From the NCBI RefSeq assembly GCF_000019605.1, contig NC_010482.1, positions 750,001-782,000 on the forward strand: DNA of 32,000 bases, in the 5' to 3' direction. Position 1 is the first letter of the stretch; each line of letters opens with the position of its first letter. A model generated the notes under the pieces. That model ran no database searches. It had not been told where the DNA came from and saw only the letters and a list, made by a program, of their open reading frames with translations. A program made the position numbers and the translations under genes. The DNA is from Candidatus Korarchaeum cryptofilum OPF8 (GTDB lineage: Archaea; Korarchaeota; Korarchaeia; Korarchaeales; Korarchaeaceae). This document shows, in pieces, positions 2,745 to 31,488 of this stretch.

Positions 2745-3110
2745 TTAGATATTTAAAATGGCTCTCAACCTCCTCACAAATTCCTTAACATCCCTAACTG
2801 AAAGTTCGACTTCCCTCGACGGCATCCAGTTCTCATAGAAGTTCTGGTGGAGAGCATTTGCGGTCCTCCAGAGGTATCTCAGCTCCTCATCACCCAGCTT
2901 CTCAGCCAGTTCATCGGCATACTTCCACAATTCCGCATGGCTTCTGAGCTCCCTGCCCTCTTTAGCAGCTAGGACTTTGAGCATTTGAGAAGCTGCAACC
3001 CATGCTTTCTCGGATGCCTGAACATAATCCTTCCTCGCTAGGAAATCTTCAGCTTCCTTCATGTAATTCTCGCATAGCTTTAAGTGAAGCTCGACATCGG
3101 CCTCTGGCAT
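2745..3110 (-). CDS. PaREP1-family protein (HEPN-like helical protein)
   Basis: The 121-aa product contains YMKEAEDFLARKDYVQASEKAW.AASQ..K..A..EGRELRSHAELWKY...L....LR.LW..AN.LH.NFYE, the PaREP1 pattern known from Pyrobaculum and Thermoproteales. TATA-like AAGTATATAAC lies about 30 nt upstream on the minus strand. Confidence 0.75.
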   Translation of the reverse strand: MPEADVELHLKLCENYMKEAEDFLARKDYVQASEKAWVAASQMLKVLAAKEGRELRSHAELWKYADELAEKLGDEELRYLWRTANALHQNFYENWMPSREVELSVRDVKEFVRRLRAILNI

Positions 3111-10714: not shown

Positions 10715-11557
10715 TTAAATCCGAGAATCTGGAGAATCATTGAACCAGAGCATTTCCTCGAGCTTCTTCCCCTTCCTCCTCCTCTTACCCATTATGGGGT
10801 AACCTCCGATCGATTCGTAAGCCCTCTCAGCTAGGGCATCCGCCTCCCCCTCGGAGAACCTGTTCCAGCCACGCGAGAACTTGAAGTTCCCGGGCGAGGT
10901 CCAGCTTATATCGAAATCATCCAGATCTTCAGGGAGTATAGGGACTGTGACAACATCCAGCTTCCTGTGGAAGCATAGAGGAGCTGTGAAAACTCTCCTT
11001 GGCATTATCTCGTTCGCGAGAATTAATTTCTCAGCATTATACTTCCTTCTGATCTCCTCCACTTTGGATTCCAGCTTCAGCCTGACGAACTCAGTGATGG
11101 ACCATGCTATATCGAGCGGGTTGGCTTTCTTGGATATTGATAGAGGATGTATGTGCACATGAGCCCCATTCCCACTCCAGATTATGAATACGGAGTTCCT
11201 CAATCCCTCTCCATTCAGGAAGTTTACTATCTCCCTTATCACCTCCACAGTAGCCCTCCAGTTCCCTATCTCGCTATCTATATCCCAAGTGGGCGTTACA
11301 GATACGACATTCCCCTCATCGTAGACGTCCTCTCTGCTCTCTATCCTCCCATATATCTCTATCGTTCCATAGAGGGTCCTGGGCCTTAAGGAGCGGAGAA
11401 GGTTATCTAGCTCCAGCTCGTCCCTCACCCTCAAGGGCTTCCCATTCAAGTACCTCCTGAACCCGCTCTCAGCCTGAACTGAGACCCACCTCCCCCTGAG
11501 GAAATCTATTAAAGCTTCCCTGACATCGGCCCTCGAGAAGTGATCTAGTGCATGCAT
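10715..11557 (-). CDS. Archaeo-eukaryotic primase (AEP) superfamily protein, PriS-like, lacking the zinc-knuckle insert
   Basis: AEP motif I is TPTWDIDSE (D92-x-D94) and motif II is FIIWSGNGAHVHI. The motif III region ANEIMPRRVFTAPLCFHRKLDVVTVPILPEDLDDFDI parallels the crenarchaeal PriS sequence ..[32 protein letters not shown]. The protein has only one Cys. Confidence 0.7.
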   Translation of the reverse strand: MHALDHFSRADVREALIDFLRGRWVSVQAESGFRRYLNGKPLRVRDELELDNLLRSLRPRTLYGTIEIYGRIESREDVYDEGNVVSVTPTWDIDSEIGNWRATVEVIREIVNFLNGEGLRNSVFIIWSGNGAHVHIHPLSISKKANPLDIAWSITEFVRLKLESKVEEIRRKYNAEKLILANEIMPRRVFTAPLCFHRKLDVVTVPILPEDLDDFDISWTSPGNFKFSRGWNRFSEGEADALAERAYESIGGYPIMGKRRRKGKKLEEMLWFNDSPDSRI

Positions 11558-12339
11558 TACGGCACCTCGGACTCGCTCTTCCTCCTGGCTTCAGCTATCC
11601 TCTCCATTACCTTCTTTGGGAGGGCATAATCCTCCTTGGAGAATTCAGCTGGACCTATTATCTCCATCCCCTTCCCCGGAATTATCTCTATCTCGTACAT
11701 CCTGAGATCGTGATTGGTCTGCCTCATCTTCTCTATCATGAGGAACCTCCTCAGCCTCCCTCCCTTGACGGACCTCCTGAACCTTATTATGCCATCCGCT
11801 ATATGCTCTATCCCGAAACCGAATGCCTCAGAAGTGGATATAGCGTATTGGGAAGTGGCCAATATAGTGAAATCCCACTTGCTGAAGACCTTCTTTATGT
11901 AATAACTGTACTTCCTCGCCATAGCTGGCTTATCCAACCAGAAAGCGCTCAGGGAATCTATTATGAGCCTGGCCCTCCCATATCCCAGCTTCTTCTTCGC
12001 ATCTATTACCTTCTGGACTAATGCCTCCGGATCGAGGGAGGTCAGGCTCCACTCATCGGTAGCGAGGAGGGCATCTATCACTATTACCTTGCCCTCCTCA
12101 ACCCCCTTCCTGATGTCCATACCCAGGAGTTCAGCTTGCTCCAATATCGAGTTCCTCGATTCCTCCGTAGTCACGTATATGACCTTATCCCCCTCCTCAT
12201 ATCCCCGCCACGCGAAATGCTGGCAGAGTATCGATTTCCCTGTCCCGGGCTCTCCAGTGATAGCGACGAGGAACCCCCTGGGTATACCGCCTTCCAGCAT
12301 CTCATCCAGCTTCCTTATGCCAGTCGAGAGCCTATCCAT
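11557..12339 (-). CDS. KaiC/RadA-like RecA-superfamily ATPase (single domain)
   Basis: STGIRKLDEMLEGGIPRGFLVAITGEPGTGKSILCQHF (Walker A), VIYVTTEES and RLIIDSLSAF (Walker B) match the typical archaeal KaiC-like single-domain layout. Its TAA stop overlaps the downstream ATG (TAATG at 11555-11559). Confidence 0.85.
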   Translation of the reverse strand: MDRLSTGIRKLDEMLEGGIPRGFLVAITGEPGTGKSILCQHFAWRGYEEGDKVIYVTTEESRNSILEQAELLGMDIRKGVEEGKVIVIDALLATDEWSLTSLDPEALVQKVIDAKKKLGYGRARLIIDSLSAFWLDKPAMARKYSYYIKKVFSKWDFTILATSQYAISTSEAFGFGIEHIADGIIRFRRSVKGGRLRRFLMIEKMRQTNHDLRMYEIEIIPGKGMEIIGPAEFSKEDYALPKKVMERIAEARRKSESEVP

Positions 12340-14366: not shown

Positions 14367-14678
14367 GCGAACATAACTCTGAGCATCCCGGACTGGCTCT
14401 ACAAATTGATGAAGAAGTACAGCGCGGTGAACTGGTCTGAGGTAGCGAGGAGGGCCATAGTAAAGGAGATACTCGCAATTAAGGCAGAGGAAGAGGGATT
14501 AAGTAGGGAGGAACTCTCCCTTCTTATGGAAATAGAAAGTATTGAGCTTCCCGAGGAGAGAAAGGTGCCCATAAGTGAGGAGGAACTCCAGGCTAAGGTG
14601 AAGGATAGGGAGAGGAGGAGGTTAGGGAAGCTCAGGGAGGTGGACTTTGATCCTAGATACATCCTCCTTGATAGTTAG
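14364..14678 (+). CDS. vapB: Ribbon-helix-helix (CopG-like) antitoxin, VapB-type
   Basis: MANITLSIPDWLYKLMKKYSAVNWSEVARRAIVKEI has the beta-strand/helix-helix pattern. The C-terminal tail is acidic and basic. The gene overlaps the downstream PIN gene by about 32 nt. Confidence 0.55.
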   Translation: MANITLSIPDWLYKLMKKYSAVNWSEVARRAIVKEILAIKAEEEGLSREELSLLMEIESIELPEERKVPISEEELQAKVKDRERRRLGKLREVDFDPRYILLDS

Positions 14679-14976
14679 AGCAAGAAGAGGGGAAAGGATA
14701 GAGGAGAATATAACCTCAATCACCTTAGTGGAGTATCCTCCGATCCGGAATTACGAGGGGTTTCGGGGAAGAATATACTTCTTGAGTATAAGAGATCAAC
14801 TTAGGGCCTCCTCCCTTCAGGAGAAGTTAAGGGTCTTGGGGAAGCCTATGGGGGCATCAGATCTCCTGATCGCAGCCGTATGTCTCAATAAGGATGAGGA
14901 GCTAGTAACCTTGGATGAGGACTTCTTGGTGATAAAGGAGATCGAACCCTCCTTCAGAGTGATAATTGAACGCTAA
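14647..14976 (+). CDS. vapC: PIN-domain ribonuclease toxin (VapC)
   Basis: ILDTSSLI (first acidic residue), TLVEY, ASDLLIAAV and VTLDEDF supply the four PIN acidic positions in the usual order. The start is TTG. Confidence 0.7.
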   Translation: MILDTSSLIVRARRGERIEENITSITLVEYPPIRNYEGFRGRIYFLSIRDQLRASSLQEKLRVLGKPMGASDLLIAAVCLNKDEELVTLDEDFLVIKEIEPSFRVIIER

Positions 14977-16137: not shown

Positions 16138-16383
16138 ATGAGCGTAGTCAGGGTCCACAAGAAGGGGATAATAGCAATCCCGAAGGGGATGAGGGAGAGG
16201 GCTGGGATAAAAGAGGGGATGCTCCTCCTAATCGAAGCTAGGGATGGGGAGCTTGTCCTGAGGCCCCTCGATCTGTGGGAGAGAATATGGGGCTCCAGTA
16301 AGGGAAGCGCTGAGGAGGTGGAGAGGGAACTTGATGAGGATGAGAGAGCTAGGGAGGAGAGGTTGAGCAGATGGAGAGAGTAG
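16138..16383 (+). CDS. vapB: AbrB/SpoVT/MazE-fold antitoxin (VapB-type)
   Basis: VRVHKKGIIAIPKGMRERAGIKEGMLLLIEARDGELVLRPL is the swapped-hairpin AbrB motif, and the C-terminal tail is acidic. The ORF-track TTG at 16126 is an alternative start. Confidence 0.75.
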   Translation: MSVVRVHKKGIIAIPKGMRERAGIKEGMLLLIEARDGELVLRPLDLWERIWGSSKGSAEEVERELDEDERAREERLSRWRE

Positions 16384-16805
16384 TCATCGATACCTACGCC
16401 CTGATGGCGATGATCTTCGGGGAGCTAACTGAAAAGGCAGAGAGAGCTCTCTTGGATGTAAGATACAGAAGAAAAGAGGGAATTTTGCCATCTACAGTTG
16501 CATATGAGTTCTTTCTTCAGTGGCTCCACGGTAGAATACCATTTAGGAGCGATAGTGAGGTCAAGGGCTTCGTCCTCGGTTATTTCAGGGTGGTCAATTT
16601 CAAGGCGGAGGATTACATAGAGATGGCCAAGTTGAAATATGAGGGTGATAGAATACTTAAACAATCAAATTTCAAAGATAGGCGGTTGAGCTTGGTTAAT
16701 GCCTCGATTCTCCTCGTTTCTTTGAGGGAGAAAGCCCCTATAGTGAGCGGGGATGATGATCTGAGATATGTGGCCTCTATGATGGGAATAGAGATACTGT
16801 GGTAG
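16371..16805 (+). CDS. vapC: PIN-domain ribonuclease toxin (VapC)
   Basis: VVIDTYALMAM, VAYEF and a C-terminal SGDDDL motif are present. A 13-nt overlap links it to the antitoxin gene. Confidence 0.75.
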   Translation: MERVVIDTYALMAMIFGELTEKAERALLDVRYRRKEGILPSTVAYEFFLQWLHGRIPFRSDSEVKGFVLGYFRVVNFKAEDYIEMAKLKYEGDRILKQSNFKDRRLSLVNASILLVSLREKAPIVSGDDDLRYVASMMGIEILW

Positions 16806-18610: not shown

Positions 18611-18904
18611 CTAGCCTGAGGGTATTATCCTGAGGACAAATCCAAAGAGGATGCCCAGTATCATGAAGAATAGGACTATTATGGCGACAGCTGCGTTATA
18701 AAACTCCCTAGATGAAGAGAAAGCAATGATAGCAGCTACTACTCTGACCATAGGGGTCAGGACCAAGATGAGTGTCCCGGCTAGGATGAAAGTAGAGTAA
18801 ATTTTCACTCCCAGTAGGTCCAGTAGGATGCCTATGGAGAGGAGGGAGAAGCTCATTATCATACCTGCTGTGAGCGTGAGGTAGACTGCTCTCTCAACTT
18901 CCAT
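18611..18904 (-). CDS. DUF1634 family small membrane protein
   Basis: The 97-aa product has three hydrophobic helices and LTPMVRVVAAIIAF. It overlaps the upstream TauE/SafE gene by 11 nt, which is the usual pairing for this family. Confidence 0.65.
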   Translation of the reverse strand: MEVERAVYLTLTAGMIMSFSLLSIGILLDLLGVKIYSTFILAGTLILVLTPMVRVVAAIIAFSSSREFYNAAVAIIVLFFMILGILFGFVLRIIPSG

Positions 18905-19751
18905 ATATACCCCTCAAGATCATATTGTAAGCGAAGTAAAGAAGCAATAAGCCGAATGTCAGCTTTATGAAACTAGCTTTCATCCTATTCATGACATAAG
19001 TCCCGGCAGTTGCTCCTATCATAACGCCCACCGCTACTGGAGCCACAGCTTCGCCATTGACTAGCCCGTAAGCTAGGTAGAGTAGGGCCCCCGTGGATGC
19101 CGTCACCCCTATCATGAACTTGCTAGTGGCTACGGCAGCTTTCATAGGCACGTTCATCAATTGATTCATTATAGGCACTTTTATTATCCCCCCTCCCAGC
19201 CCCAGCATCGCTGAAATAATGCCAGCTAAGTAAGAAGCTATTAATCCGGATTTAGTTCTCACTACCGTGTATTTTACCTCCTTCCCTTCAGCTAAATCCG
19301 GATAGCTGTTAGAGAATCCCAGTTTCCTCGCTATCCCATCCTCCTTCCCGAGGAAGAGATCCTTCCTGAGCTTCTCCTCCTCCCTCCTCCTCGTCGATAT
19401 CTGCGATATAGATAGGTATATCAAGAGGAGCCCCATCATCAAATATAGGAGAGAGGATGGCATTTTAATAGTCAGAAGGGCTCCGGAAACAGCCCCTGCT
19501 GTTGTCGCTGTCTCGAGGAACATCCCCAGTCTCACGTTAGTCATCCTCTGATCCACATATCTGGATGCCCCCGCTATGCTAGTCGCGACCACGCTAACTA
19601 TACTCACGGCTATCGCTTCCTTTATGCTGAAGCCGAAGAACATGACCAAGCAGGGTATTATGATGACCCCGCCCCCTATCCCGAGGACGGCGCCGAAGAG
19701 CCCCGCTATGGTGCCCATCAGCAGCATTAGCAGAGAGGCCACTGGATCCAT
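18894..19751 (-). CDS. TauE/SafE (DUF81) family anion exporter
   Basis: The 285-aa product has duplicated halves, each beginning GxxxGxLGIGGGxIxxP (GLFGAVLGIGGGVIIIP and MLGLGGGIIKVP). A TTATAAATG box lies about 22 nt upstream. Confidence 0.85.
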   Translation of the reverse strand: MDPVASLLMLLMGTIAGLFGAVLGIGGGVIIIPCLVMFFGFSIKEAIAVSIVSVVATSIAGASRYVDQRMTNVRLGMFLETATTAGAVSGALLTIKMPSSLLYLMMGLLLIYLSISQISTRRREEEKLRKDLFLGKEDGIARKLGFSNSYPDLAEGKEVKYTVVRTKSGLIASYLAGIISAMLGLGGGIIKVPIMNQLMNVPMKAAVATSKFMIGVTASTGALLYLAYGLVNGEAVAPVAVGVMIGATAGTYVMNRMKASFIKLTFGLLLLYFAYNMILRGIYGS

Positions 19752-22207: not shown

Positions 22208-22768
22208 ATGTATTTGAGGGAAGTGAAGAACTGGTCTGACAGGAAAGGCGTCCTTTATGCCAGAGTCGACGTGCCTGAATTCTCCGAAGTTATCCTGCGT
22301 GATGTGATCATAATGTCCACGAGATGGTGGGCTGATTTCATGTCGGGCATATCGGCCCTCATGGGGGAGAAGGCCCTCAGGCCCGTCCTCTATTACTCAG
22401 CTTACCGGATGATGAAGCAGCACAACCAGAAGGGAGTCATGAAGATAATTAAGGAGGGCAAATTGACTAGGAAGAGGATATTCGAGATAGCTTGCGATAT
22501 ATTCTCAACCCTGGGCTTCGGAGAGGTGAGGAGCATAGAGCTGATCGGAGGTAAGATAAGGATCACAGTCAAGGATTCATTCGAGGCCAGGGGAAGGAGA
22601 GCCGATGCTCCGGTCTGTCATTTCGTAGCCGGAATATTATCGGCGATAGTTGAGGATGTCTTCAGCATAAGGACGGGTCCCCTCGTGGAGGAGAGCTGCG
22701 CCGCTACTGGAAATGATTTCTGCACTTTCTCAGCCGAGGTGATGGAACTTGGGGTTAATAGCATCTAG
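22208..22768 (+). CDS. corQ: V4R (4-vinyl reductase) domain protein, CorQ-like
   Basis: The C-terminal half LGFGEVRSIELIGGKIRITVKDSFE.....ADAPVCHFVAGILSAIVEDVF......VEESCAATGNDFCTFSAEV is the V4R pattern (C.F..G.L.G....E..C...G...C.F). TATA-like CTTTTTAAGG lies about 28 nt upstream. Confidence 0.75.
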   Translation: MYLREVKNWSDRKGVLYARVDVPEFSEVILRDVIIMSTRWWADFMSGISALMGEKALRPVLYYSAYRMMKQHNQKGVMKIIKEGKLTRKRIFEIACDIFSTLGFGEVRSIELIGGKIRITVKDSFEARGRRADAPVCHFVAGILSAIVEDVFSIRTGPLVEESCAATGNDFCTFSAEVMELGVNSI

Positions 22769-23867
22769 GGAAGTTGAGCTCATCGTCAGGGCTGTTGGTA
22801 AGTGTTATTTAAGCTGCCCCCACTGTAATTGGAATGAGGAGATCCGTGAGGCATACCTCAGGGAGTCCTCCCTGGAGCTCCTGCTGGATATACTCATAGG
22901 GGAGGGATACAAGCCCGAAGTATACTTCTCTTGCCCAGATCCCCTGCTTCACCCCTCTCTTTCATCCCTGATAAGTGCCCCCATTGAGAGGGGACTCAAA
23001 TCGACTGTCCTGGTCCCCGCGAGGACTAGATCGGATAGGAAAGCTTGGGAATCTCTCCTCAATGCGAGCAGGATTTTCATCTTTTCATCCTCAATAAGGG
23101 ATCTCAGGGGATCAAAGGAATTCCTCAAGTTCCTCATCTCAAATGGATCCGACTTGAAGCTCATGTTCCTTCGAGGCTCGAAGGATGATTTGAATCAGAT
23201 CCTAGAGTTCGCGAGGGATATGGGGCTGGAGCTATGGGTAGCCCCTCCTCTATTCAGGATTCCAAAGGTTGAGGGATTAGATGAGAATTTGGAGCTCGGT
23301 AAACAAGTAGCAAAATTCATGGGCATTTATGACGTCAGGATAGCGTTCAAAGGGGACTTCCCGTTCAAAATAATTGAGGGTCCGAGGTGCGAGATAGGGT
23401 GCAAGCTCCTCTACCTTGACCCAGAGGGGAGATTGGGTAGATGCCCGTTTAATGCGATGGATCAGCTCAACTCTCCTCCTCTGGAGGCGATTCGCATACT
23501 GGATGAGAGTTGCGAGAGGGGAGAGGGGAGGAAATTTGAGCTCGTTCCCTCCATCAAGTTGATAACTGGGAACGGGGAGGAAATTTATGAGAGGGATCTG
23601 GAGCTCCTCTCACTCATAGAAGAGCTTGGGAGTTTGAGCCAAGCGGCGAGAACTATTGGAGCGACACCATCATCTATCTTCAAGAGGATAAGGAGAATGG
23701 AGGGGGTGCTGGGGTTACGCTTGATCACGAGCTCCAGGGGGGGATACCTGAGGGGAGGTGTCAGGCTCACGCCGGAGTGCGAGGGGCTCGTGAGGAGGTA
23801 TAGGGAGCTTAAGGTATCAATTATTAACAGATACCGTCTTTCCCTAATGGAAAAATTGGATGGTTAG
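22749..23867 (+). CDS. corR: CorR-like regulator: radical-SAM/SPASM-like Cys domain fused to a C-terminal ModE/LysR-type HTH
   Basis: A Cx3Cx2C motif (CYLSCPHC) lies at 22803-22826, and a second Cys group reads CEIGCKLLYLDPEGRLGRCPF. The C-terminus (about 23589-23800) reads LELLSLIEELGSLSQAARTIGATPSSIFKRIRRMEGVLGLRLITSSRGG..RGGVRLTPECEGLV, a ModE-N/LysR HTH pattern. The start is uncertain (TTG at 22749 overlaps corQ). Confidence 0.7.
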   Translation: MGLIASREVELIVRAVGKCYLSCPHCNWNEEIREAYLRESSLELLLDILIGEGYKPEVYFSCPDPLLHPSLSSLISAPIERGLKSTVLVPARTRSDRKAWESLLNASRIFIFSSSIRDLRGSKEFLKFLISNGSDLKLMFLRGSKDDLNQILEFARDMGLELWVAPPLFRIPKVEGLDENLELGKQVAKFMGIYDVRIAFKGDFPFKIIEGPRCEIGCKLLYLDPEGRLGRCPFNAMDQLNSPPLEAIRILDESCERGEGRKFELVPSIKLITGNGEEIYERDLELLSLIEELGSLSQAARTIGATPSSIFKRIRRMEGVLGLRLITSSRGGYLRGGVRLTPECEGLVRRYRELKVSIINRYRLSLMEKLDG

Positions 23868-23883
23868 AGCTTAGGAAAATCTG

Positions 23884-23925
23884 AAATTCGGAATGCTTAT
23901 TTTCTATGAATTCCTTAAATTCCGG
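23884..23925 (+). promoter_or_regulatory. cooF promoter with repeats bracketing the TATA box
   Basis: The TATA-like TTATTTTCTA (23897-23906) is flanked by the inverted pair GGAAT (23890-23894) / ATTCC (23910-23914). A direct repeat AAATTCGG (23884-23891) / AAATTCCGG (23917-23925) also flanks it. The cooF ATG is at 23934. Confidence 0.35.
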
Positions 23926-23933
23926 GGGATCCC

Positions 23934-24509
23934 ATGGTCCAACCCCTCGAGGAATTCTTGATATACGTAGACCCCTCCCGTTGCGTCGGATGCAGGAGCT
24001 GCGAGATAGCTTGCGCAGTTGAACACTCCTTGAGCAAGTCCCTTTATGCTTCTATCTTTGAGGATCCCAGGCCTAAGCCCAGGACGAGCGTCGTTGTGGC
24101 CGATAGTATTTACGTCCCCATGAGGTGCATGCACTGCGATCCCGCTCCGTGCGTCAAAGCGTGCCCCACGGGATCCATGCATAGGACTGATGAGGGATTC
24201 GTCATCTCGGATCCCTCCAAGTGCATAGGTTGCAGGACATGCTTGTTAGCTTGCCCATTCGGTCATCCGAGTTACAGTAGAGCCGGAAAGGTGATCAAGT
24301 GCGATCACTGCGTCGATAGGTTCAGAGTGGGGCTGCCGCCAGCCTGCGTCGAGGCGTGCCCCACCGGGGCCCTCAGGTTCGGCAGGGCTGAGGAGCTGCT
24401 GATGGAGGAGAAGAGGAGGAGGGCCCTCGAGCTAATAATAGGGATGGGGGAGGGAGGGGTCGTCTACAAGAGGGCATCCTCCGGCTTCCCCTCTCTCATA
24501 GGGAGGTGA
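23934..24509 (+). CDS. cooF: CooF-type 4Fe-4S ferredoxin-like electron-transfer protein
   Basis: Four Cys clusters are present: CVGCRSCEIAC, CMHCDPAPCVKACPTGS, CIGCRTCLLACPFG and CDHC...PACVEACPTGAL. Confidence 0.85.
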   Translation: MVQPLEEFLIYVDPSRCVGCRSCEIACAVEHSLSKSLYASIFEDPRPKPRTSVVVADSIYVPMRCMHCDPAPCVKACPTGSMHRTDEGFVISDPSKCIGCRTCLLACPFGHPSYSRAGKVIKCDHCVDRFRVGLPPACVEACPTGALRFGRAEELLMEEKRRRALELIIGMGEGGVVYKRASSGFPSLIGR

Positions 24510-24513
24510 TCTT

Positions 24514-26436
24514 ATGGAGGAGAGAGTTTATGAGAGGATATTGAGGGCCACTAAGAGGGAGTTCTATGAGCAGGCATCGATAGACCCGACGGTCCTACCG
24601 CTACTCGAGAAAGCTGATAGGGAGGGTGTAGAGACCGCTTGGCACAGGTACCTCAAGCAGCAGCCCCAATGTGGCTTCGGATTGCTGGGTGTGTGCTGCA
24701 GGAATTGTAACATGGGTCCCTGCAGGATAGATCCATTCGGCTATGGCCCGGATAAGGGTATATGCGGTGCTGATGCCGATACGATAGTAGCTAGGAACCT
24801 CATGAGGGCACTGGCTGCTGGTGCAGCAGCTCACAGCGATCACGCTAGGGATATAGTGGAGGTGTTCAGGGGGATAGTGGACGGATGGGCCAAGGATTAC
24901 AAGATAGCTGATGAGCAGAAGTTATTGGGTATAGCGAGAGCCCTCGGGGTGAAGACGGATGGAAAGAGCATCATGGAGGTCGCCAAGGAGGTCGTGGAGA
25001 TAGCCGAGATGGAGTTCGGTAAGCCGGATAATTCGCCTCTCAGGTTCCTTAACGCATATGCCCCTGAGAGGAGGAAGGAGCTATGGAGGAAACTCGGAAT
25101 AACTCCTAGGGCTATAGATAGAGAGGTAACTGAGATCATGCATAGGACCCATATGGGAGTGGATGCCGATCCGCTCAATCTGATAGCTCAGGGCCTCAGG
25201 GCAGCGCTGGCCGATGGTTGGAGCGGATCCATGATGGCCACCCTCTTCAGCGACGTTATGTTCGGGACGCCCAAGCCCATAAAGGTCTGGGCTAATCTTG
25301 GAGTGCTCAGGGAGGATTCTGTTAACGTGATGGTCCACGGCCACAATCCGCTGCTCTCCATGCAGATAGCTGAAGTTGCGAAGGATCCCGAGATGGTTGA
25401 ACTAGCTAAGAGCGTGGGAGCTGAGGGAATTAATGTAGTGGGAATGTGCTGCACTGGTAATGAAGTATTGATGAGGCTGGGAATTCCTATAGCCGGCAAC
25501 TTCCTCCAGCAGGAGCTCGCGATTATAACAGGAGCTCTGGAAGCTGTGATAGTGGATTACCAATGCATAATGCCAGCTCTAGTCGATGTAGCCTCATGCT
25601 ACCACACTAAGATAATAACGACGGAGCCTAAGACGAAGATACCGGGGGCAATTCACATAGAGTTCGATAAGGCCAACGCTAGGGAGAGCGCCAAGAAGAT
25701 ACTGAAGGTGGCTGTGGAGAACTTCAAGAATAGGGTGAAGGAGAGAGTTTTCATACCTAAGGAGAAGATGGAAGCCGTGGTCGGCTTCAGCGTTGAGGCG
25801 ATACTCTCAGCCCTAGGAGGGTCCCTAGAACCATTGGCTGATGCCCTCAAGAGCGGGAAGATAAAGGGAATAGCTGGAGTGGTCGGCTGCACGAACCCGA
25901 AAGTGAGGCACGATAGCTCCCACGTGGCGATAACTAAGGAGCTCATAGCCAACGATATCCTAGTAGTTGGTACTGGCTGCTGGGCAATAGCGATGAGTAA
26001 GCACGGTTTCTTCAAACCTGAGGCAGCTGAGATGGCTGGGCCAGGGCTGAGAGAGGTGTGCAAGGCTCTAGGGATACCTCCCGCCCTCCACATGGGGAGC
26101 TGTGTAGATTGCAGCAGGATGCTAATAGCTTTAGCAGCTCTGGCCGATCATTTGGGGGTTGATATCAGCGATCTACCTGCAGCCGGCTCGGCTCCTGAGT
26201 GGTACAGTGAGAAGGCCGTATCCATAGGTAGCTACTTCGTAGCGAGCGGTCTCCTCGTCCATCTAGGGACGATCCCTCAGGTCCTGGGATCCAAGAGAGT
26301 AGTGGAGCTGCTGACCAAGGACGCCGAGAGTTTAGTCGGTGGCAAGTTCTTCGTAGAGACCGATCCGGTGAAAGCGGCTAGGGTCATGATAGAGCACATA
26401 AGGGAGAAGAGGAGAAAGCTCGGCTGGCCAGAGTGA
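24514..26436 (+). CDS. cooS: Anaerobic Ni-dependent carbon-monoxide dehydrogenase catalytic subunit
   Basis: The 640-aa product has the N-terminal CGFGLLGVCCRNCNMGPCRI (B/D-cluster Cys), plus HGHNP, GMCCTGNE and GSCVDCSR. An SD GGGAGGTGAT lies at 24501-24510. Confidence 0.95.
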   Translation: MEERVYERILRATKREFYEQASIDPTVLPLLEKADREGVETAWHRYLKQQPQCGFGLLGVCCRNCNMGPCRIDPFGYGPDKGICGADADTIVARNLMRALAAGAAAHSDHARDIVEVFRGIVDGWAKDYKIADEQKLLGIARALGVKTDGKSIMEVAKEVVEIAEMEFGKPDNSPLRFLNAYAPERRKELWRKLGITPRAIDREVTEIMHRTHMGVDADPLNLIAQGLRAALADGWSGSMMATLFSDVMFGTPKPIKVWANLGVLREDSVNVMVHGHNPLLSMQIAEVAKDPEMVELAKSVGAEGINVVGMCCTGNEVLMRLGIPIAGNFLQQELAIITGALEAVIVDYQCIMPALVDVASCYHTKIITTEPKTKIPGAIHIEFDKANARESAKKILKVAVENFKNRVKERVFIPKEKMEAVVGFSVEAILSALGGSLEPLADALKSGKIKGIAGVVGCTNPKVRHDSSHVAITKELIANDILVVGTGCWAIAMSKHGFFKPEAAEMAGPGLREVCKALGIPPALHMGSCVDCSRMLIALAALADHLGVDISDLPAAGSAPEWYSEKAVSIGSYFVASGLLVHLGTIPQVLGSKRVVELLTKDAESLVGGKFFVETDPVKAARVMIEHIREKRRKLGWPE

Positions 26437-26441
26437 CCTTT

Positions 26442-27224
26442 ATGGGGCTCAAGATAATAGTGGCCGGGAAGGGAGGGGTCGGAAAGACAACCGTCGCCTC
26501 ACTACTCTCATTTTTTCTCTCATCAAGGGGGAAGAGGGTTTTGGCTCTGGACACGGACTCCGTGCCCAACCTAGCTCTCTCCCTAGGCCTTCCCAGGGAG
26601 ATGGAGAGTAAGATAGTTCCAATAGTCAAGGACGAATCCCTCGTCGAGGAGAGGACGGGGGCGAGACCCGGCGAGAGCTGGGGCCTCCTCTTCAGGCTGA
26701 ATCCGAAGGTCGACGATATCGTCGATAAATATGGGATAAGGATTAGCGAGAATTTGAGTCTCCTGGTGGTTGGCAGCATAGATTCGGCAAAACAGGGATG
26801 CCTCTGTCCAGCTATATCTTTGGGAAAGGCCCTTATCTCCCACATACTGATGGAGGAGCGTGACGTGATCGTAGTGGACTCGGAAGCCGGGGCGGAGGTC
26901 TTCGGTAGGGGATTGGCTGAGAGATTCGATCACATGCTCTGCGTCACTGAGTCGACTCAGAAGTCCCTGGAGATAGCTAAGAGGATCGCCAGGATGGGCA
27001 GGGAGCTGGGGATAAGGGAAGTCACCTACATAGTTAACAAATTCTCCGGTGATGAGAGCGAGAGGCTCAGGATATCCGAGACCTTAGATGCGAGGCATTT
27101 CTTCATCCCTTATGATTATTCCCTGATCAGAGCCGAGATCGAGGGGAGGAGCCTGAAGGAACTGGATGAATCCTCCCCAGCAGTTCAGGCCCTGAGATCG
27201 GCCTTCGAATCTATTTTCGGGTGA
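26442..27224 (+). CDS. cooC: CooC-type Ni-insertion accessory ATPase
   Basis: It has the deviant Walker A motif IVAGKGGVGKTTVAS and the metal-binding C-x-C (GCLCPA). The alternative GTG start at 26433 overlaps the cooS stop. Confidence 0.9.
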   Translation: MGLKIIVAGKGGVGKTTVASLLSFFLSSRGKRVLALDTDSVPNLALSLGLPREMESKIVPIVKDESLVEERTGARPGESWGLLFRLNPKVDDIVDKYGIRISENLSLLVVGSIDSAKQGCLCPAISLGKALISHILMEERDVIVVDSEAGAEVFGRGLAERFDHMLCVTESTQKSLEIAKRIARMGRELGIREVTYIVNKFSGDESERLRISETLDARHFFIPYDYSLIRAEIEGRSLKELDESSPAVQALRSAFESIFG

Positions 27225-27229
27225 TCCTC

Positions 27230-29176
27230 ATGCCCAAGGTCGGGGTTTACGTTTGCCATTGTGGTAAGAACATAGCCGGGAAGGTGGATGTCCAGAGAGT
27301 AGCCGCTGAGATGAAGAAACATCCTCAGGTCACTGTATCGAGGCATTACTTCTTCATGTGCAGTAGTTTCGGTCAGGAATTGATAAAAAGGGATATAAAG
27401 GCAGGGAAAGTTGATAGGGTCGTCGTAGCCGCCTGCAGCCCCAAGCTCCACGAACCCTTATTCAGAGGGGTTGTGGAGGAAGCTGGACTGAACTTCGGTT
27501 ATTATGAGCAGGCTAACATAAGGGAACTCGTCTCCTGGTCGACTGAAGATCCAGAGGAGGCCACCAGGAAAGCTATAGCCTATACTTGGGCTGCTGTGGA
27601 GAGGGTCCTCGAGGCAGAGCCGGTGGAGAGCGAGGAGTTCAGGGTGAACAGGGAGGCCCTGATAATAGGGGGAGGAGTGGCCGGTATAGCGGCAGCTCTC
27701 GATCTAGCTGAGAAGGGAATAAGGGTCCATATCATAGAGAGATCTCCTACAATAGGAGGTAAAATGGCTCTATTGGATAGAGTATTTCCTACGGGTGACT
27801 GTTCACTTTGCATACTCACTCCCATGATGGCCGAAGCCGAGCACAACCCTAACATAACCATTCACACTATGTGCGAGGTCACGGAGGTGAGCGGATCCGT
27901 CGGCGACTTCAGGGTGAGAGTTAAGAAGAGGGCCAGATATGTGGATCAAGATAAGTGTGTGGCCTGCGGTATATGCGCGGAATCATGCCCCGTGGAGGTT
28001 CTGAATGAGTGGTACGCCAGGCTGGGGAAGAGGAAAGCTGCTTACATACCTTTCCCCCAGTCCGTCCCCAGGGCTTATGTCATAGATAGGGAGAATTGCC
28101 TTTTCTTCAGGGATGGAAGCTGCAGGAAGTGCGAGGAGGTCTGCCCGGCCAAGGCAATAGATCTGAGTGAGAGCGATGGGGAATTCGAGCTCAGAGTGGG
28201 GGCTATAATAGTGGCGACGGGAGCTGACGAGTACGATGCCAGCAACCTCAAGAATTATGGTTATGGGAAGATAGCTGATGTCATAACGCATTTTGGTTTC
28301 GAGAGCCTCATAAATGTCAATGGTCCGACTGGTGGTCACCTGAGGAGGCCATCCGATGGTAAAGTACCTGAGAGCATCCTTTTCGTGCAGTGCGCCGGGA
28401 GCAGGGATGTCAACAATAACCCTTACTGCTCCAACGTCTGCTGCATGATAACGCTCAAGCACGCTGAGATAATCAGGATGGAATATCCCGAGACCAAAGT
28501 TTACGTGGCCTACATAGACATGAGGACCCCTAAGAAGGGGTTCGAGGAGATGTACGCCAGGGTGAGGGAGGAAGGCGTAGTCTTCATCAGAGGGAAGCCG
28601 GGAGAGATAAGGAGGGAGGGGGATAAGTTAGTTACAGAGATATATGATGAGGTGCTAGGTGAGAAATTGAGGCTGGAGGTTGATATGGTCGTGCTAGCCG
28701 CGGGCCTCAGCCCATCCGAGGGAACTCTCTCCATCTCGAGGACGCTGAACATACCGAGGGATCTCTACGGATTTCTTCAGGAATTACATCCAAAACTGAA
28801 GCCAGTTCAGACATCCAGACCGGGCATATTCATATGCGGTACTGCTCAAGGTCCTAAAGACATTCCAGATTCGGTAACACAGGCTAAAGCGGCGGCTAGT
28901 GAGGCTGCTAGGCTCTTGATGATAGGAAAGGTCTTAGTGACCGGGGAGAAGGCGAAGGTGAATTCCGAGCTATGCACGGGTTGCGGGGCATGCGTCGAGG
29001 AGTGTCCCTTCTCAGCCATAGTGCTGGAGGAGGGGAAGGCCAAGGTGCTCCCTCTCGCCTGTATGGGGTGCGGTATATGCCAGGGGGCCTGCCCGACTGG
29101 AGCTATAGAGAGGAGGCTCTACGATCACGGTCAGATCCTCAATCAGATAGATGGCCTGTTGGAGGTGGTGACATGA
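27230..29176 (+). CDS. hdrA: Heterodisulfide reductase subunit A-like flavoprotein
   Basis: The N-terminus reads VYVCHCGKNIAG and the FAD motif IIGGGVAGIAAALDLAEKG. Four ferredoxin-type CxxCxxCxxxCP motifs are present: CVACGICAESCP, C..CRKCEEVCP, CTGCGACVEECP and CMGCGICQGACP. An SD GGGTGATCC precedes the ATG; GTG at 27221 is an alternative start. Confidence 0.9.
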   Translation: MPKVGVYVCHCGKNIAGKVDVQRVAAEMKKHPQVTVSRHYFFMCSSFGQELIKRDIKAGKVDRVVVAACSPKLHEPLFRGVVEEAGLNFGYYEQANIRELVSWSTEDPEEATRKAIAYTWAAVERVLEAEPVESEEFRVNREALIIGGGVAGIAAALDLAEKGIRVHIIERSPTIGGKMALLDRVFPTGDCSLCILTPMMAEAEHNPNITIHTMCEVTEVSGSVGDFRVRVKKRARYVDQDKCVACGICAESCPVEVLNEWYARLGKRKAAYIPFPQSVPRAYVIDRENCLFFRDGSCRKCEEVCPAKAIDLSESDGEFELRVGAIIVATGADEYDASNLKNYGYGKIADVITHFGFESLINVNGPTGGHLRRPSDGKVPESILFVQCAGSRDVNNNPYCSNVCCMITLKHAEIIRMEYPETKVYVAYIDMRTPKKGFEEMYARVREEGVVFIRGKPGEIRREGDKLVTEIYDEVLGEKLRLEVDMVVLAAGLSPSEGTLSISRTLNIPRDLYGFLQELHPKLKPVQTSRPGIFICGTAQGPKDIPDSVTQAKAAASEAARLLMIGKVLVTGEKAKVNSELCTGCGACVEECPFSAIVLEEGKAKVLPLACMGCGICQGACPTGAIERRLYDHGQILNQIDGLLEVVT

Positions 29177-30054
29177 GCTACGTGATAGGCTTCTGCTGTA
29201 ATGAGTGCGCTTATGCTGCGGCTGATCTAGCTGGTAGCACTCACAGGAAGCATCCAGCGAATGTATTGGTGATAAGGATACCCTGCTCCGGTACCTTCGA
29301 CCCGTCTTGGCTCGTTTACGCCCTAGCTAGAGGGGCTGATGCAGCTTTCGTGGCTGGTTGCAGGAAGGGGGAGTGCCATTACGTGGATGGAAACCTCAAA
29401 GCTGAGAAGAGGGTTGCTTTCGTGAAACAGCTGCTCGAGGCCGTCGGAGTGGAACCTGAGAGAGTTGAGATGTTCTTCATGGCGTCCTCTGAGCCACATA
29501 AGTTCGTGAAAGCCGCTGAGGAGATGAGTAAGAGGGTGGAGAAGCTCGGCCCTCTCCCACGCAGGGGCAGGATCGATAGGGTAAGGCTGGGGAAGAAGGA
29601 GAACCTTGTTGAGGCCCTTAAAGCAATCGCCAAAGAGTTTAAGGACATCAAGCTTCCTGAAATACCTGGCTTCAAGGTACCGGTTTATGATGAGAGCTGC
29701 ATCGGTTGCGGGGCATGCGTCGAGGCTTGCGAGCGTGATGCCCTCAGGATGGTAGACTCCGATGGATTCAGGAGGATATTATTGAATGCGGCTAGGTGTA
29801 CAGCATGTGGAGATTGTGTTAAGGCATGCGAAGAGAGTGGAGAGTCTTCTCTGAGGCTGGGAGGCATGAGAATGTCTCAATTAATCTCAGATTGGAGTGA
29901 GGGGATCAGGATACCTCTAGTCGCTTGCGAAGTTTGCGGAAAATATTTCGCGACGGAAGGGGAATTGAGGAAAGCGGATTCTCCTCAAATATGCCCGAGT
30001 TGCAAGGAGGTGCTATCCGCTAAAGCGATGTCATTCGGTAAGGTGAGAGCATGA
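29173..30054 (+). CDS. mvhD: MvhD/FlpD domain fused to a 2x[4Fe-4S] ferredoxin domain and a C-terminal CxxC...CxxC element
   Basis: MSYVIGFCCNECAYAAADLAG......V.VIRIPCSG......VY.ALARGADAAFVAGCRKGECHY..GN is the MvhD pattern. It is followed by CIGCGACVEACE, CTACGDCVKACE and CEVCGKYF...CPSCKE. An ATGA overlap links it to the hdrA stop. The ORF-track start at 28972 is an out-of-gene extension. Confidence 0.85.
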   Translation: MSYVIGFCCNECAYAAADLAGSTHRKHPANVLVIRIPCSGTFDPSWLVYALARGADAAFVAGCRKGECHYVDGNLKAEKRVAFVKQLLEAVGVEPERVEMFFMASSEPHKFVKAAEEMSKRVEKLGPLPRRGRIDRVRLGKKENLVEALKAIAKEFKDIKLPEIPGFKVPVYDESCIGCGACVEACERDALRMVDSDGFRRILLNAARCTACGDCVKACEESGESSLRLGGMRMSQLISDWSEGIRIPLVACEVCGKYFATEGELRKADSPQICPSCKEVLSAKAMSFGKVRA

Positions 30055-30536
30055 GCCTCAGGGATGATATAAAAGCGATCTCCGGGCAGGACGTCATGCT
30101 ATGCTTCCAATGCGGGGAGTGTTCATCATCCTGCCAGATGGCCGGTTACAAGGGCTTCTCCCCCGCGAAGTTGATACATTCCATCCAATTGGGAATGGAG
30201 GATGTCCTGAGGTCTAGAATTTACGAACTCTGCCTTCACTGTTTCCTCTGTTCCGTCAGGTGCCCTCAGGGACTGAGCTTCCCGGATATAGCTACAGCAT
30301 TATCCAACATAACTGTGAGGAGGTATGGTCCGGGGAAGATTGAGAAAATGTTCTTAGACGAGATAACTAATAAGGGATTTTTGAACCCAGCTACATTTGC
30401 TCTGAAGACCTTTGGATTCTCCCTCCCCAAATACGCTGGTCTGAAGGGCCTCAAAGCCGCTCCCATTATCTTCGAGAGGGGGAACGTCAGGAGGGAACTG
30501 GTAGAGGAGGTGAGGAGGGTTGCAAGGGAGGGTTGA
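30051..30536 (+). CDS. hdrC: Heterodisulfide reductase subunit C-like
   Basis: It contains CFQCGECSSSC and CLHCFLCSVRCPQG. An ATGA overlap links it to the upstream gene. Confidence 0.85.
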   Translation: MSLRDDIKAISGQDVMLCFQCGECSSSCQMAGYKGFSPAKLIHSIQLGMEDVLRSRIYELCLHCFLCSVRCPQGLSFPDIATALSNITVRRYGPGKIEKMFLDEITNKGFLNPATFALKTFGFSLPKYAGLKGLKAAPIIFERGNVRRELVEEVRRVAREG

Positions 30537-31269
30537 GGCTTACTATCCCGGATGCTCGGCGAGGACCACTGAAAGAGCATATCTGAGGACCGCTCTCTTC
30601 GTCCTCAGGAAGTTGGGGGTGGAATTCAGGCTGCTCGACGATTTACCATGCTGCGGCACGCTGGAGGGTGAGCTCTACAGCAGGGAACTCACCAGGAAGC
30701 TCGCTGAGATAATAAATAGGGAAGCCAATGGGAGAGTTATAACCGGTTGCAGCGGTTGTTACAGCACGATAAACAGGGGCGGTGGTTCTGCAACTCACTT
30801 AGTCGATTTCCTGTTCAGGGAAGTCGGCCTGGAGAGGATAGCTGAGAGGATAGTTAGGAAGGTGGATCTCAAGGTCGCAGCTTACTACGGGTGCCAAGCT
30901 CTGAGGCCCAAAGAGTTGGCTATAGATGATCCGGAGGATCCCAGAGTGCTCGAGGAAATACTATCGCTCACTGGAGTCCAGACAGTAGATTTTCCAATGA
31001 GGACTAAGTGTTGCGGTGGACCAATAGCCCTCAAAGAGCCGGATCTTGCCATAAGGATGGCTAAGGATGTAGTGAAATCTGCTGAGGATAGCGGAGCCGA
31101 GGCCATAGCTACTATGTGCAACCTCTGCCACTTCATGCTGGACTTCTACACATCGGGGCTGCCGATCCTCCACTTCACTCAGATACTGGCTTACTCCATG
31201 GGGATGCCTCCGGATGAGCTGGGATTGGATGAATTATTCAATCCCCCCAGGAAGGGATTCGGGAGGTGA
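30520..31269 (+). CDS. hdrB: Heterodisulfide reductase subunit B-like (two CCG domains)
   Basis: The first CCG domain is YYPGCSA...LPCCGT...GCSGC. The second is YYGCQ...TKCCGGP...MCNLCHF. The TTG start overlaps the hdrC 3' end by 17 nt. Confidence 0.85.
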   Translation: MQGRVEAYYPGCSARTTERAYLRTALFVLRKLGVEFRLLDDLPCCGTLEGELYSRELTRKLAEIINREANGRVITGCSGCYSTINRGGGSATHLVDFLFREVGLERIAERIVRKVDLKVAAYYGCQALRPKELAIDDPEDPRVLEEILSLTGVQTVDFPMRTKCCGGPIALKEPDLAIRMAKDVVKSAEDSGAEAIATMCNLCHFMLDFYTSGLPILHFTQILAYSMGMPPDELGLDELFNPPRKGFGR

Positions 31270-31273
31270 GATC

Positions 31274-31462
31274 TTGTGCGAGGGTGAGGTCTACATTATA
31301 GAGGGTTCCTCAGAGAAGTTGCTGATGGAGGATGTCATCTCCCTCTCAATTAAGGATGGGAGGCTGGTAATCTACAATGAGATGGGTGAGATGAAGGAGA
31401 TAAATGATGCGAAGGAAATCAGGATAGATATGGTGAGGCACCTAGTGAAGGTAGTCATCTGA
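31274..31462 (+). CDS. cooT: CooT-like small Ni-binding accessory protein
   Basis: Reading from TTG at 31274 gives (M)CEGEVYIIEGSSEKLLMEDVISLSIKDGRLVIYNEMGEMKEINDAKEIRIDMVRHLVKVVI. This matches the CooT hallmarks: Cys2, an MCE..VY start and a length of about 62 aa. An SD GGGAGGTGAG ends 3 nt before the TTG. Confidence 0.7.
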   Translation: MCEGEVYIIEGSSEKLLMEDVISLSIKDGRLVIYNEMGEMKEINDAKEIRIDMVRHLVKVVI

Positions 31463-31481
31463 GGCCCGGAAACTCACCCCA

Positions 31482-31488
31482 TTTTTTT
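31482..31488 (+). terminator. Oligo-T tract (T7) after cooT, candidate archaeal terminator
   Basis: CCCCATTTTTTTGC lies 20 nt after the cooT stop, and the next gene has its own TATA. Confidence 0.4.

Follow-up and report, generated by a model that had tools for sequence, protein, structure and literature searches.

A putative CO-regulated operon linking a Ni-carbon monoxide dehydrogenase to a heterodisulfide reductase-type module in Candidatus Korarchaeum cryptofilum OPF8

Where do the electrons of carbon monoxide (CO) go when the genes of a nickel-dependent CO dehydrogenase (Ni-CODH) are accompanied neither by a hydrogenase nor by an acetyl-CoA synthase (ACS)? This question is raised by a stretch of 32,000 nucleotides from the hot-spring archaeon Candidatus Korarchaeum cryptofilum OPF8 (assembly GCF_000019605.1, contig NC_010482.1, positions 750,001 to 782,000 of the forward strand), which is called the window in the following and in which position 1 is the first letter. 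Here the CODH genes cooF, cooS, cooC and cooT lie on one strand with hdrA, mvhD-ferredoxin, hdrC and hdrB, the genes of a heterodisulfide reductase (Hdr)-type module. Hdr-type bifurcating complexes that take their electrons from H2, formate, F420H2 and NADH are known. We propose that these genes, together with two regulatory genes, form one CO-regulated operon that encodes a soluble CODH-Hdr supercomplex wired as described below, a proposal which we regard as having an even chance of being correct.

The block consists of ten co-directional genes (22208-31488, plus strand) in the order V4R, LysR-type helix-turn-helix (HTH), cooF, cooS, cooC, hdrA, mvhD-ferredoxin, hdrC, hdrB and cooT. An initial annotation of the window, made from the letters alone, had recognized the eight-gene core from cooF to cooT (23934-31462, plus strand), and the listing of open reading frames (ORFs) and the Pfam scans returned all eight genes with the expected domains. 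The V4R and HTH genes directly upstream, which also belong to the cluster, had been missed. No hydrogenase, ACS or mcr gene was identified by the ORF listing or the Pfam scans anywhere in the 32 kb, as the initial annotation had already stated for the first two.

In the proposed scheme CooS, matured by CooC and CooT, would oxidise CO, and the electrons would pass over the four clusters of CooF to a HycF/CooX-like two-cluster domain that is fused to MvhD. From there they would reach the flavin adenine dinucleotide (FAD) of HdrA through the [2Fe-2S] cluster of MvhD. By analogy with the MvhAGD-HdrABC complex the HdrA flavin would split electron pairs. One branch would use HdrC and the two non-cubane clusters of HdrB to reduce a disulfide, and the other would reduce ferredoxin by way of the ferredoxin domains in HdrA. 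The formal reaction would be 2 CO + 2 H2O + Fd(ox) + RS-SR' → 2 CO2 + Fd(red) + RSH + R'SH + 2 H+. The initial annotation had already suggested such a route from CODH to Hdr via CooF and the MvhD-ferredoxin fusion, and the sequence comparisons described here support that interpretation; beyond them, we infer that the proteins associate physically, that electrons flow in this direction and are bifurcated, and which kind of disulfide is reduced.

That CODH and Hdr are wired directly is argued most strongly by the fusion encoded by the mvhD-ferredoxin gene (29173-30054, plus strand; 293 aa), because it joins a subunit that normally faces CooF to the MvhD subunit that normally feeds HdrA. The N-terminal half is an MvhD domain by its Pfam match (Table 1) and by 131 bits to 9sfi_K. 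An AlphaFold2 model of the fusion (predicted local distance difference test 91.6) superposes on the MvhD subunits of 5ODC, 7BKB and 8RVU with a root mean square deviation of 1.3 Å, and template modelling scores of 0.86-0.93 were obtained against 5odc_D and 8rvu_F. In the C-terminal part, two CxxCxxCxxxC motifs are followed by a tail of the form CxxC...CxxC. By BLASTP, residues 142-290 align with the entire 171-175-aa iron-sulfur (FeS) subunit of the CODH-linked membrane hydrogenases of Thermococci and Desulfurococcales at the loci L015 and L018 (30-31% identity, E 6e-16 and 3e-13), the four-Cys tail included. The best NCBIfam match of this subunit is the model of the formate hydrogenlyase Fe-S subunit HycF, with 178 bits below the cut-off of 204, and a Foldseek search with the fusion model also matches HycF (7z0s_F). 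The ferredoxin half of the fusion is thus homologous over its full length to a HycF/CooX-type hydrogenase subunit. Subunits of that type adjoin CooF or HycB in the electron chain of CODH-hydrogenase and formate hydrogenlyase complexes. For Rhodospirillum rubrum, CooFS and CooMKLXUH are described as one tight complex in which CooX is one FeS subunit (PMC5861303).

All 17 Cys residues that are invariant in 37 homologues of the fusion are present in the OPF8 protein, five of them in the MvhD domain (9, 12, 38, 63, 68) and twelve in the HycF-like half (176, 179, 182, 186, 209, 212, 215, 219, 252, 255, 274, 277). The CxxC...CPxC stretch at residues 252-277 (window 29926-30006), invariant in the 37 fusions, is common to the HycF-type subunits of CODH-linked hydrogenases; a Zn ribbon, a rubredoxin-like site or a further Fe-S site are candidates for the metal bound there.

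The initial annotation had recommended a survey of cooS neighbourhoods for hdrA. A scan of one genome per GTDB species gave 80 loci with CooS relatives, and tblastn searches of these loci with the ten window proteins showed that the linkage is kept across the Korarchaeia and recurs in another gene order elsewhere. The order V4R-HTH-cooF-cooS-cooC-hdrA-mvhD/Fd-hdrC-hdrB was found in every Korarchaeia-type locus with enough contig (L005, L006, L007, L008, L010 and L023). In these six loci CooS is 76-95% and HdrC 43-89% identical to the OPF8 protein, and in four of them (L005, L006, L008 and L010) a homologue of cooT ends the block. Two further loci, L003 and L004, stop at contig edges and are compatible with the Korarchaeal order. 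The V4R gene lies directly upstream in all Korarchaeal loci. According to an all-against-all clustering of the neighbourhoods, the ten block genes are the only genes common to the seven Korarchaeal loci, and the flanks differ. Such an arrangement is far beyond chance. The 66-nt region in front of cooF also retains AAAT..GGAAT..TTAT boxes and a G-run in the alignment of the seven loci, and we consider it a candidate promoter/operator.

Between OPF8 and L010, the ratio of nonsynonymous to synonymous substitution rates (dN/dS) is 0.03-0.15 for all ten genes at a dS of 0.56-0.85; each of them is under purifying selection. The value of hdrA (0.034) is about that of cooS (0.032), and hdrA, mvhD/Fd, hdrC and hdrB together cover 0.03-0.10. 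The conserved order and the dN/dS values therefore indicate that the block is an old, selected unit and neither a chance adjacency nor a relic. The opposite idea, that the hdr genes are a decaying and functionless remnant of ancestral methanogenesis which came to lie beside the coo genes by accident, could draw on Vulcano et al. 2023, who call the Korarchaeal HdrABC/MvhD 'partial' and tie it to a methylotrophic ancestor, and on a Korarchaeia locus (L166) that has only the C-terminal half of hdrA and no coo genes. The same authors, however, argue that a vestigial nature is unlikely. Selection on the hdr genes of the strength given above, cofactor Cys residues that are all intact and a gene order that is kept down to 76% CooS identity speak against it as well. 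These ligands, the conservation and the dN/dS values largely rule the idea out, and we regard it as highly improbable.

The locus L166 itself (L166:6398-9482) stems from the Korarchaeia metagenome-assembled genome (MAG) JAOZFX010000019.1. There, mvhD/Fd-hdrC-hdrB follow residues 321-645 of hdrA (71% identical), and an unrelated gene on the opposite strand is located upstream. It is either a truncated relic after loss of CODH or an assembly artefact.

Outside the Korarchaeia, the Archaeoglobales MAG locus L022 and the unassigned contig L162 carry hdrA-hdrC-hdrB-mvhD/Fd-V4R-HTH-cooF-cooS-cooC tightly packed on one strand. A 6.7-kb Hydrothermarchaeota contig (L020) starts within hdrB and shows the same order through to cooC. 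In a neighbour-joining tree of CooS (614 ungapped columns, 300 bootstraps) the Korarchaeal clade and the group of L020, L022 and L162 are each supported by 100%, and the latter joins the Thermococci at 83%. CooS proteins with an Hdr linkage thus fall into two groups that are not sisters, and the CODH-Hdr coupling is therefore either ancestral to the archaeal clade E-1 of CooS or has arisen twice. Either origin argues for a function of the linkage.

The nearest CooS proteins outside the Korarchaeia (67-70% identical) belong to Thermococci and Desulfurococcales, where they are encoded in HTH-cooF-cooS-cooC-cooT clusters. Large genes follow cooT in the seven of these loci with enough sequence. 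In the Thermococci locus L018, Pfam scans revealed a V4R gene upstream and, downstream, an Mrp-type antiporter subunit, an NADHdh-type membrane subunit, a [NiFe] hydrogenase large subunit and the 171-aa FeS protein. This cluster type is known as that of hydrogenogenic CODHs. Since cooT directly follows cooC in these hydrogenase-type clusters, the Korarchaeal hdr cassette sits between two CODH maturation genes, a bracketing that the initial annotation had pointed out. The Korarchaeal operon resembles a cluster of the Thermococci/Desulfurococcales kind in which an Hdr cassette between cooC and cooT takes the place of hydrogenase and antiporter. The sole survivor of the hydrogenase would be its CooF-facing FeS subunit, in the form of the domain fused to MvhD. 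Among the bacterial and methanogen CooS relatives (58-63% identical), most are accompanied by cooF alone. The cooS gene of the Methanosarcina sp. UBA293 MAG (L039:10001-11863) contains a single in-frame TAG at codon 181 (LGI*PRG) that does not occur in 15 other Methanosarcinales cooS loci and may reflect pyrrolysine read-through, a pseudogene or a MAG error.

In the CODH part of the block, CooS passes the equivalog model TIGR01702 with 753 bits at a cut-off of 478, covers positions 1-512 of the 513 positions of PF03063 with 631 bits, and gives 979 bits to PDB 6t7j, deposited as carbon monoxide dehydrogenase. It is an exact match to WP_012309407 and ACB07510, as are HdrA to ACB07512 and the MvhD fusion to ACB07513. 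Table S1 of Inoue 2019 lists WP_012309407 as E-1 with a type II D-cluster and with the active-site residues H,H,C,C,C,C,C,K all present. By these matches CooS is a Ni-CODH catalytic subunit of clade E-1 with the full set of ligands for the C-, B- and D-clusters and with the catalytic His and Lys, and it is predicted to oxidise CO. CooF has 16 Cys in four cluster motifs and is 57-60% identical to the CooF proteins of hydrogenase-linked clusters. The cooC gene belongs to COG3640 in Table S2 of Inoue 2019. CooT exceeds the PF10133 cut-off of 27 with 39 bits and possesses the Met-Cys2 start. This Cys2 is reportedly a Ni ligand.

The HTH gene has a homologue directly 5' of cooF in nearly all surveyed archaeal E-1 CooS loci, with 26-43% identity outside the close relatives; in L004, L009 and L021 tblastn did not detect one. 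A V4R gene occupies the equivalent position in the Thermococci locus L018 and in L022/L162. CorQR is a CO-responsive activator of the CODH cluster of Thermococcus onnurineus according to Kim et al. 2015, as cited in PMC6557876 and PMC4791640. By domains and position, the V4R and LysR-type HTH proteins of OPF8 would be such a CorQR-type CO-responsive pair, and by analogy the operon is probably induced by CO.

In the Hdr core the cofactor motifs are intact. Residues 2-644 of HdrA align with the methanogen HdrA 8rvu_a (631 bits), with every cluster motif and the FPTxDCSxC motif in register. With 28 Cys it comprises the FAD domain, the N-terminal cluster and the inserted and C-terminal ferredoxin domains (six [4Fe-4S] clusters). 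Its best NCBIfam model is HdrA2, with 803 bits below the cut-off of 1100. HdrC has two CxxCxxCxxxC motifs with eight Cys and reaches 52 bits with TIGR03290, below the cut-off of 160. HdrB contains exactly 10 Cys, at C12, C44-45, C77 and C80 and at C124, C164-165, C200 and C203. Its two CCG motifs have spacings of 31/31 and 39/34, slightly short in comparison to CX(31-39)CCX(35-36)CXXC. With 249 aa it is shorter than the solved methanogen HdrB chains (284-302 aa); the match to 8rvv_B amounts to 107 bits with a weak N-terminal half, and TIGR03288 gives 115 bits, below the cut-off of 345. As all three proteins stay below the NCBIfam cut-offs for CoB-CoM heterodisulfide reductase, we class them as Hdr-like in architecture and not as a reductase of CoM-S-S-CoB, the heterodisulfide of coenzymes M and B. 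Neither mcr nor genes of CoM/CoB biosynthesis were found within the 32-kb window, and methyl-coenzyme M reductase (Mcr) is absent from most Korarchaeia (Vulcano et al. 2023). The disulfide substrate is probably another one than CoM-S-S-CoB.

Several points weigh against the proposed supercomplex. The Hdr proteins fall short of the equivalog thresholds, as just described, and no candidate thiol carrier is encoded near the operon; the neighbourhood clustering of the Korarchaeal loci returned no conserved DsrC/TusE, GcvH or thioredoxin neighbour beyond the ten genes. At its standard potential CO can reduce ferredoxin directly, and bifurcation is then not required. One Korarchaeal relative (L009) carries cooF-cooS without the hdr cassette. 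A CODH cannot be deduced from the fusion alone, since MvhD/HycF-like fusions are also encoded where CODH is missing, namely in Asgard loci, in L164 of the Methanomassiliicoccales and in the locus L168. In a metagenome scan with the fusion alignment, the matches listed are mostly ordinary short MvhD genes, and CODH was seen among them on only three Korarchaeal contigs. A full-length fusion beside a CooF-like gene (L086) was rejected as a CODH case, as it is linked to hypF and not to CODH.

The Asgard-type cases are two loci, L163:718-7229 (from an Asgard MAG) and L167:3604-10115, in which genes with Fer4_22 and NAD_binding_1/DHODB_FeS domains and a gene for a 158-aa CooF-like protein precede hdrA-mvhD/Fd-hdrC-hdrB. 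They share with OPF8 the order of the cassette, the architecture of the fusion, its invariant Cys residues and the CooF-like protein directly upstream. They differ in a donor module that looks NAD(P)H-dependent, with no CODH, and their identities are only 24-46%. They point to a variant of the complex that is driven by NAD(P)H and fit a plug-in donor design. From the Asgard, L164 and L168 contexts it follows that the cassette is modular and CODH one of several donors.

Cassettes without CODH are at the same time what an explanation by co-regulation without coupling would lead one to expect. In that case CooS/CooF would reduce free ferredoxin, and HdrABC-MvhD/Fd would be a separate ferredoxin-dependent disulfide reductase or a confurcating enzyme, with a place in the CO-responsive operon only as an electron sink. 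A precedent is described in PMC6557876, where the CODH-II and the energy-converting hydrogenase of Carboxydothermus pertinax are distally encoded partners linked by ferredoxin. The best NCBIfam match of HdrA can be counted in the same direction, since the HdrA2 prototype of Methanosarcina acetivorans is described by Yan et al. 2017 as ferredoxin- and F420H2-dependent. However, the domain fused to MvhD is homologous to the fixed internal wire HycF/CooX and not to a soluble carrier, the cassette lies between cooC and cooT, the CODH-Hdr linkage exists in two different gene orders, and in the Asgard loci a CooF-like protein again directly precedes hdrA. We therefore consider co-regulation without physical coupling to be rather unlikely.

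A wired complex need not bifurcate. HdrA could be a mere conduit in a CO:disulfide oxidoreductase that serves thiol homeostasis, the repair of oxidative stress or the reduction of an external sulfur compound. At high partial pressure (pCO), CO already has a sufficiently low potential, and stress-related CODH clusters such as that of CooS-IV of Carboxydothermus hydrogenoformans are known. In the Kor3 locus L009, cooF-cooS is joined only by a two-CCG protein and a CooF-like FeS protein, and the lack of HdrA there suggests that a simple route from CO to a disulfide suffices. On the other hand, no feature of the bifurcating methanogen enzyme is missing from HdrA of OPF8, which has both the inserted and the C-terminal ferredoxin domain. 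This HdrA is also as constrained as CooS, and a flavoprotein of 650 aa is not a parsimonious wire. A Nernst estimate for 85 °C places CO2/CO at about -450 to -380 mV for pCO2/pCO ratios of 1e2-1e4. Trace CO would then be too weak to reduce ferredoxin alone, and bifurcation would bring the advantage that explains Mvh-Hdr of methanogens at low H2. We hold a non-bifurcating oxidoreductase to be distinctly unlikely.

The L009 locus, from the Kor3 MAG JAVCBW010000038.1 (L009:3161-7615), deserves a note of its own. Neither cooC nor the hdr cassette accompanies its cooF-cooS pair (CooS 78% identical), which stands back to back with the genes of the CooF-like FeS protein, of 278 aa, and the protein with two CCG domains, of 277 aa. 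In the tree its CooS nests within the Hdr-type Korarchaeal clade. It could be a simpler, HdrA-free route from CO to a disulfide.

A comparison with characterized systems shows which parts of the putative supercomplex are familiar. With MvhAGD-HdrABC (PDB 5ODC) it shares an HdrA that aligns over its full length with all cluster motifs, the MvhD fold at 1.3 Å, an HdrC with two [4Fe-4S] motifs and an HdrB with two CCG motifs. Here, in contrast, Ni-CODH and CooF replace MvhAG as donor, MvhD continues into a HycF-like domain with two clusters, the divergent HdrB and HdrC score below the CoB-CoM equivalog cut-offs, and the hosts belong to a lineage mostly without Mcr (Vulcano 2023). Precedents for alternative donors to the Hdr core via MvhD are FdhAB-MvhD-HdrABC(-Fmd) of Methanospirillum hungatei (PDB 7BKB) and Elp-Hdr of Methanothermobacter (PDB 8RVU), whose entries are matched best or nearly best by HdrA and MvhD of OPF8. 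Both differ from the system described here in that the adaptor is here a covalent MvhD-HycF-like fusion. None of the solved Hdr complexes returned by searches with the Hdr and MvhD proteins has a CODH donor.

Known CODH clusters offer the complementary half. The T. onnurineus-type cluster corQR-cooFSC-cooT-Mch/Mnh has the regulator pair, CooF (57-60%), CooS (67-70%), CooC and CooT in common with the OPF8 operon, and it contains, like CooFS-CooMKLXUH of R. rubrum, a hydrogenase FeS subunit that is homologous to the C-terminal half of the fusion. In contrast to the CODH-hydrogenase clusters, the window and the Korarchaeal loci lack hydrogenase and antiporter subunits, both of which are present in L018, and the products would be a thiol and reduced ferredoxin instead of H2 and an ion gradient. 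Hdr-like genes near a Ni-CODH are also known from acetogens and sulfate reducers, as HdrCBA-MvhD(-MetFV) genes beside acs/CODH in Moorella and Desulfotomaculum. That type belongs to the Wood-Ljungdahl pathway, with ACS and the corrinoid-protein genes COG1614, COG1456 and COG2069 (Desku row in Inoue 2019). For OPF8 we rejected a Wood-Ljungdahl/MetF-type Hdr context, as no ACS, corrinoid protein or MetF is encoded in the window.

The gene junctions are consistent with co-transcription of the ten genes, presumably as one operon. They range from -17 to +5 nt, with the one 66-nt gap 5' of cooF. According to the initial annotation, all overlaps and gaps from cooF to cooT measured 4 nt or less. That is correct for the two ATGA stop/start overlaps, which were read at 29173 and 30051 as indicated, and for the 4-nt gap between cooF and cooS, and it fails for hdrC and hdrB, which overlap by 17 nt. 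The start codons of cooC and hdrA are ambiguous: with GTG the cooS/cooC and cooC/hdrA junctions are 4-nt overlaps, with ATG 5-nt gaps, in both cases inside the 10 nt that had been given for them. Shine-Dalgarno sites of the GGAGGTGA type overlap the stop codons of upstream genes, again as noted before. The longest ORF of cooT begins at ATG 31214, the start assumed at first. We prefer TTG 31274 as most likely the true one because it yields a product beginning with Met-Cys2 (MCEGE...) and leaves a 4-nt gap from hdrB, and because an independent gene call on the identical contig gives the same 62 aa. A T7 tract closes the cluster after cooT, as had been described, and is a candidate terminator; the next gene downstream, for an epimerase, begins about 60 nt beyond it. 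The features are listed in Table 1.

Table 1. Features of the putative coo-hdr operon, with coordinates in the window.
Feature	Coordinates	Strand	Evidence
V4R-domain protein, first half of the putative CorQR-type pair	22208..22768	+	PF02830 V4R 39 bits
LysR/ModE-type HTH regulator, 372 aa, second half of the putative CorQR-type pair	22749..23867	+	PF00126 HTH_1 40.5 bits, TIGR00637 ModE domain
Candidate promoter/operator of the coo-hdr operon, 66-nt intergenic region	23868..23933	+	A/T-rich boxes, GGGGG ribosome-binding site
cooF, ferredoxin-like subunit, four [4Fe-4S] motifs	23934..24509	+	PF13247 Fer4_11 82 bits, 16 Cys
cooS, Ni-CODH catalytic subunit, clade E-1	24514..26436	+	PF03063 631 bits, TIGR01702 753 bits
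cooC, Ni-insertion ATPase, start GTG 26433 or ATG 26442	26433..27224	+	PF01656 CbiA 57.6 bits, N-terminal P-loop
hdrA, FAD and six [4Fe-4S] flavoprotein, start GTG 27221 or ATG 27230	27221..29176	+	631 bits to 8rvu_a
MvhD domain of the fusion protein, [2Fe-2S] adaptor to HdrA	29173..29577	+	PF02662 156 bits
HycF/CooX-like domain of the MvhD fusion, two [4Fe-4S] motifs and C-terminal CxxC...CxxC	29596..30054	+	BLASTP, Foldseek
hdrC, two [4Fe-4S] motifs	30051..30536	+	PF13534/PF13183, 8 Cys
hdrB, disulfide-reducing subunit, two CCG motifs, 249 aa	30520..31269	+	PF02754 CCG twice, 89 bits
cooT, Ni chaperone, probable TTG start	31274..31462	+	PF10133 39 bits, cut-off 27
T7 tract, candidate archaeal oligo-T terminator	31482..31488	+	19 nt past the cooT stop, read from the sequence

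A scan for bacterial promoters and terminators was set aside, because its counts did not exceed the expectation from shuffled sequences and a bacterial consensus had been applied to an archaeal host. The lone terminator-like hairpin that it reported lies inside cooC (26511-26537, plus strand; one site versus 7.4 expected from shuffles with the bacterial consensus) and is most likely meaningless. The tRNA scan found no tRNA. The remaining 22 kb of the window encode housekeeping, transporter and toxin-antitoxin-type proteins. Some 4 kb before the operon, the opposite strand carries a gene of the TauE/SafE-type sulfite-exporter family (18894-19751, minus strand); an adjoining DUF1634 gene shows up solely among the genes called on L001, a contig of identical sequence. 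Elsewhere in the Korarchaeia the TauE/SafE-type gene is not conserved beside the operon, and it therefore probably has nothing to do with the putative sulfur substrate. The first half of the window contains a PaREP1-family gene (2745-3110, minus strand), two PIN-domain toxin-like genes (14647-14976 and 16371-16805, both plus strand) and a KaiC-like ATPase gene (11557-12339, minus strand), all with no apparent tie to the operon.

The operon has been public since 2008, and in the literature searched its prior appearance is confined to a supplementary table. Supplementary Table 2 of Inoue et al. 2019 lists the OPF8 genes KCR_RS03930 to KCR_RS03970, assigned to COG1719, COG2005, COG0437, COG1151, COG3640, COG1148, one protein without COG, COG1150 and COG2048. 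The only CODH-Hdr context that is named in CODH surveys is the acs-linked HdrCBA-MvhD; COG1148 co-occurs with ACS at 0.875 (Inoue 2019 Table S5). A 2026 eLife survey of CODH contexts does not mention Hdr. Vulcano et al. 2023 report that all Korarchaeia genera keep a 'partial HdrABC/MvhD', which they call puzzling, and draw no link to CooS. A discussion of a cooS-hdr operon outside the Wood-Ljungdahl context was not found in the literature searched, which did not cover Elkins 2008 and McKay 2019. Nor did we find there a functional analysis of the predicted complex, which would be of the Hdr type, with CODH as its donor and the fusion as a novel adaptor.

The broadest form of the proposal is that a Ni-CODH is a genuine donor of an Hdr-type bifurcating complex via an MvhD-CooX fusion, and that hyperthermophilic non-methanogens use trace CO in this way to obtain low-potential ferredoxin and to reduce a thiol cofactor or protein disulfide other than that of CoM and CoB. 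This we put forward tentatively, as possible rather than probable. If true, a CO-driven Hdr complex would open a new way for CO into the energy metabolism of anaerobes and would give the HdrABC/MvhD proteins of non-methanogenic Korarchaeia a concrete role. It would also explain why HdrABC/MvhD were kept without Mcr in Korarchaeia, some Archaeoglobales and Hydrothermarchaeota. The operon points to a further disulfide redox carrier in these archaea, and its adaptor of MvhD and a CooF-facing hydrogenase subunit suggests how one catalytic module can be rewired onto another. With a complete host genome and thermostable proteins, the complex may be approachable by heterologous expression.

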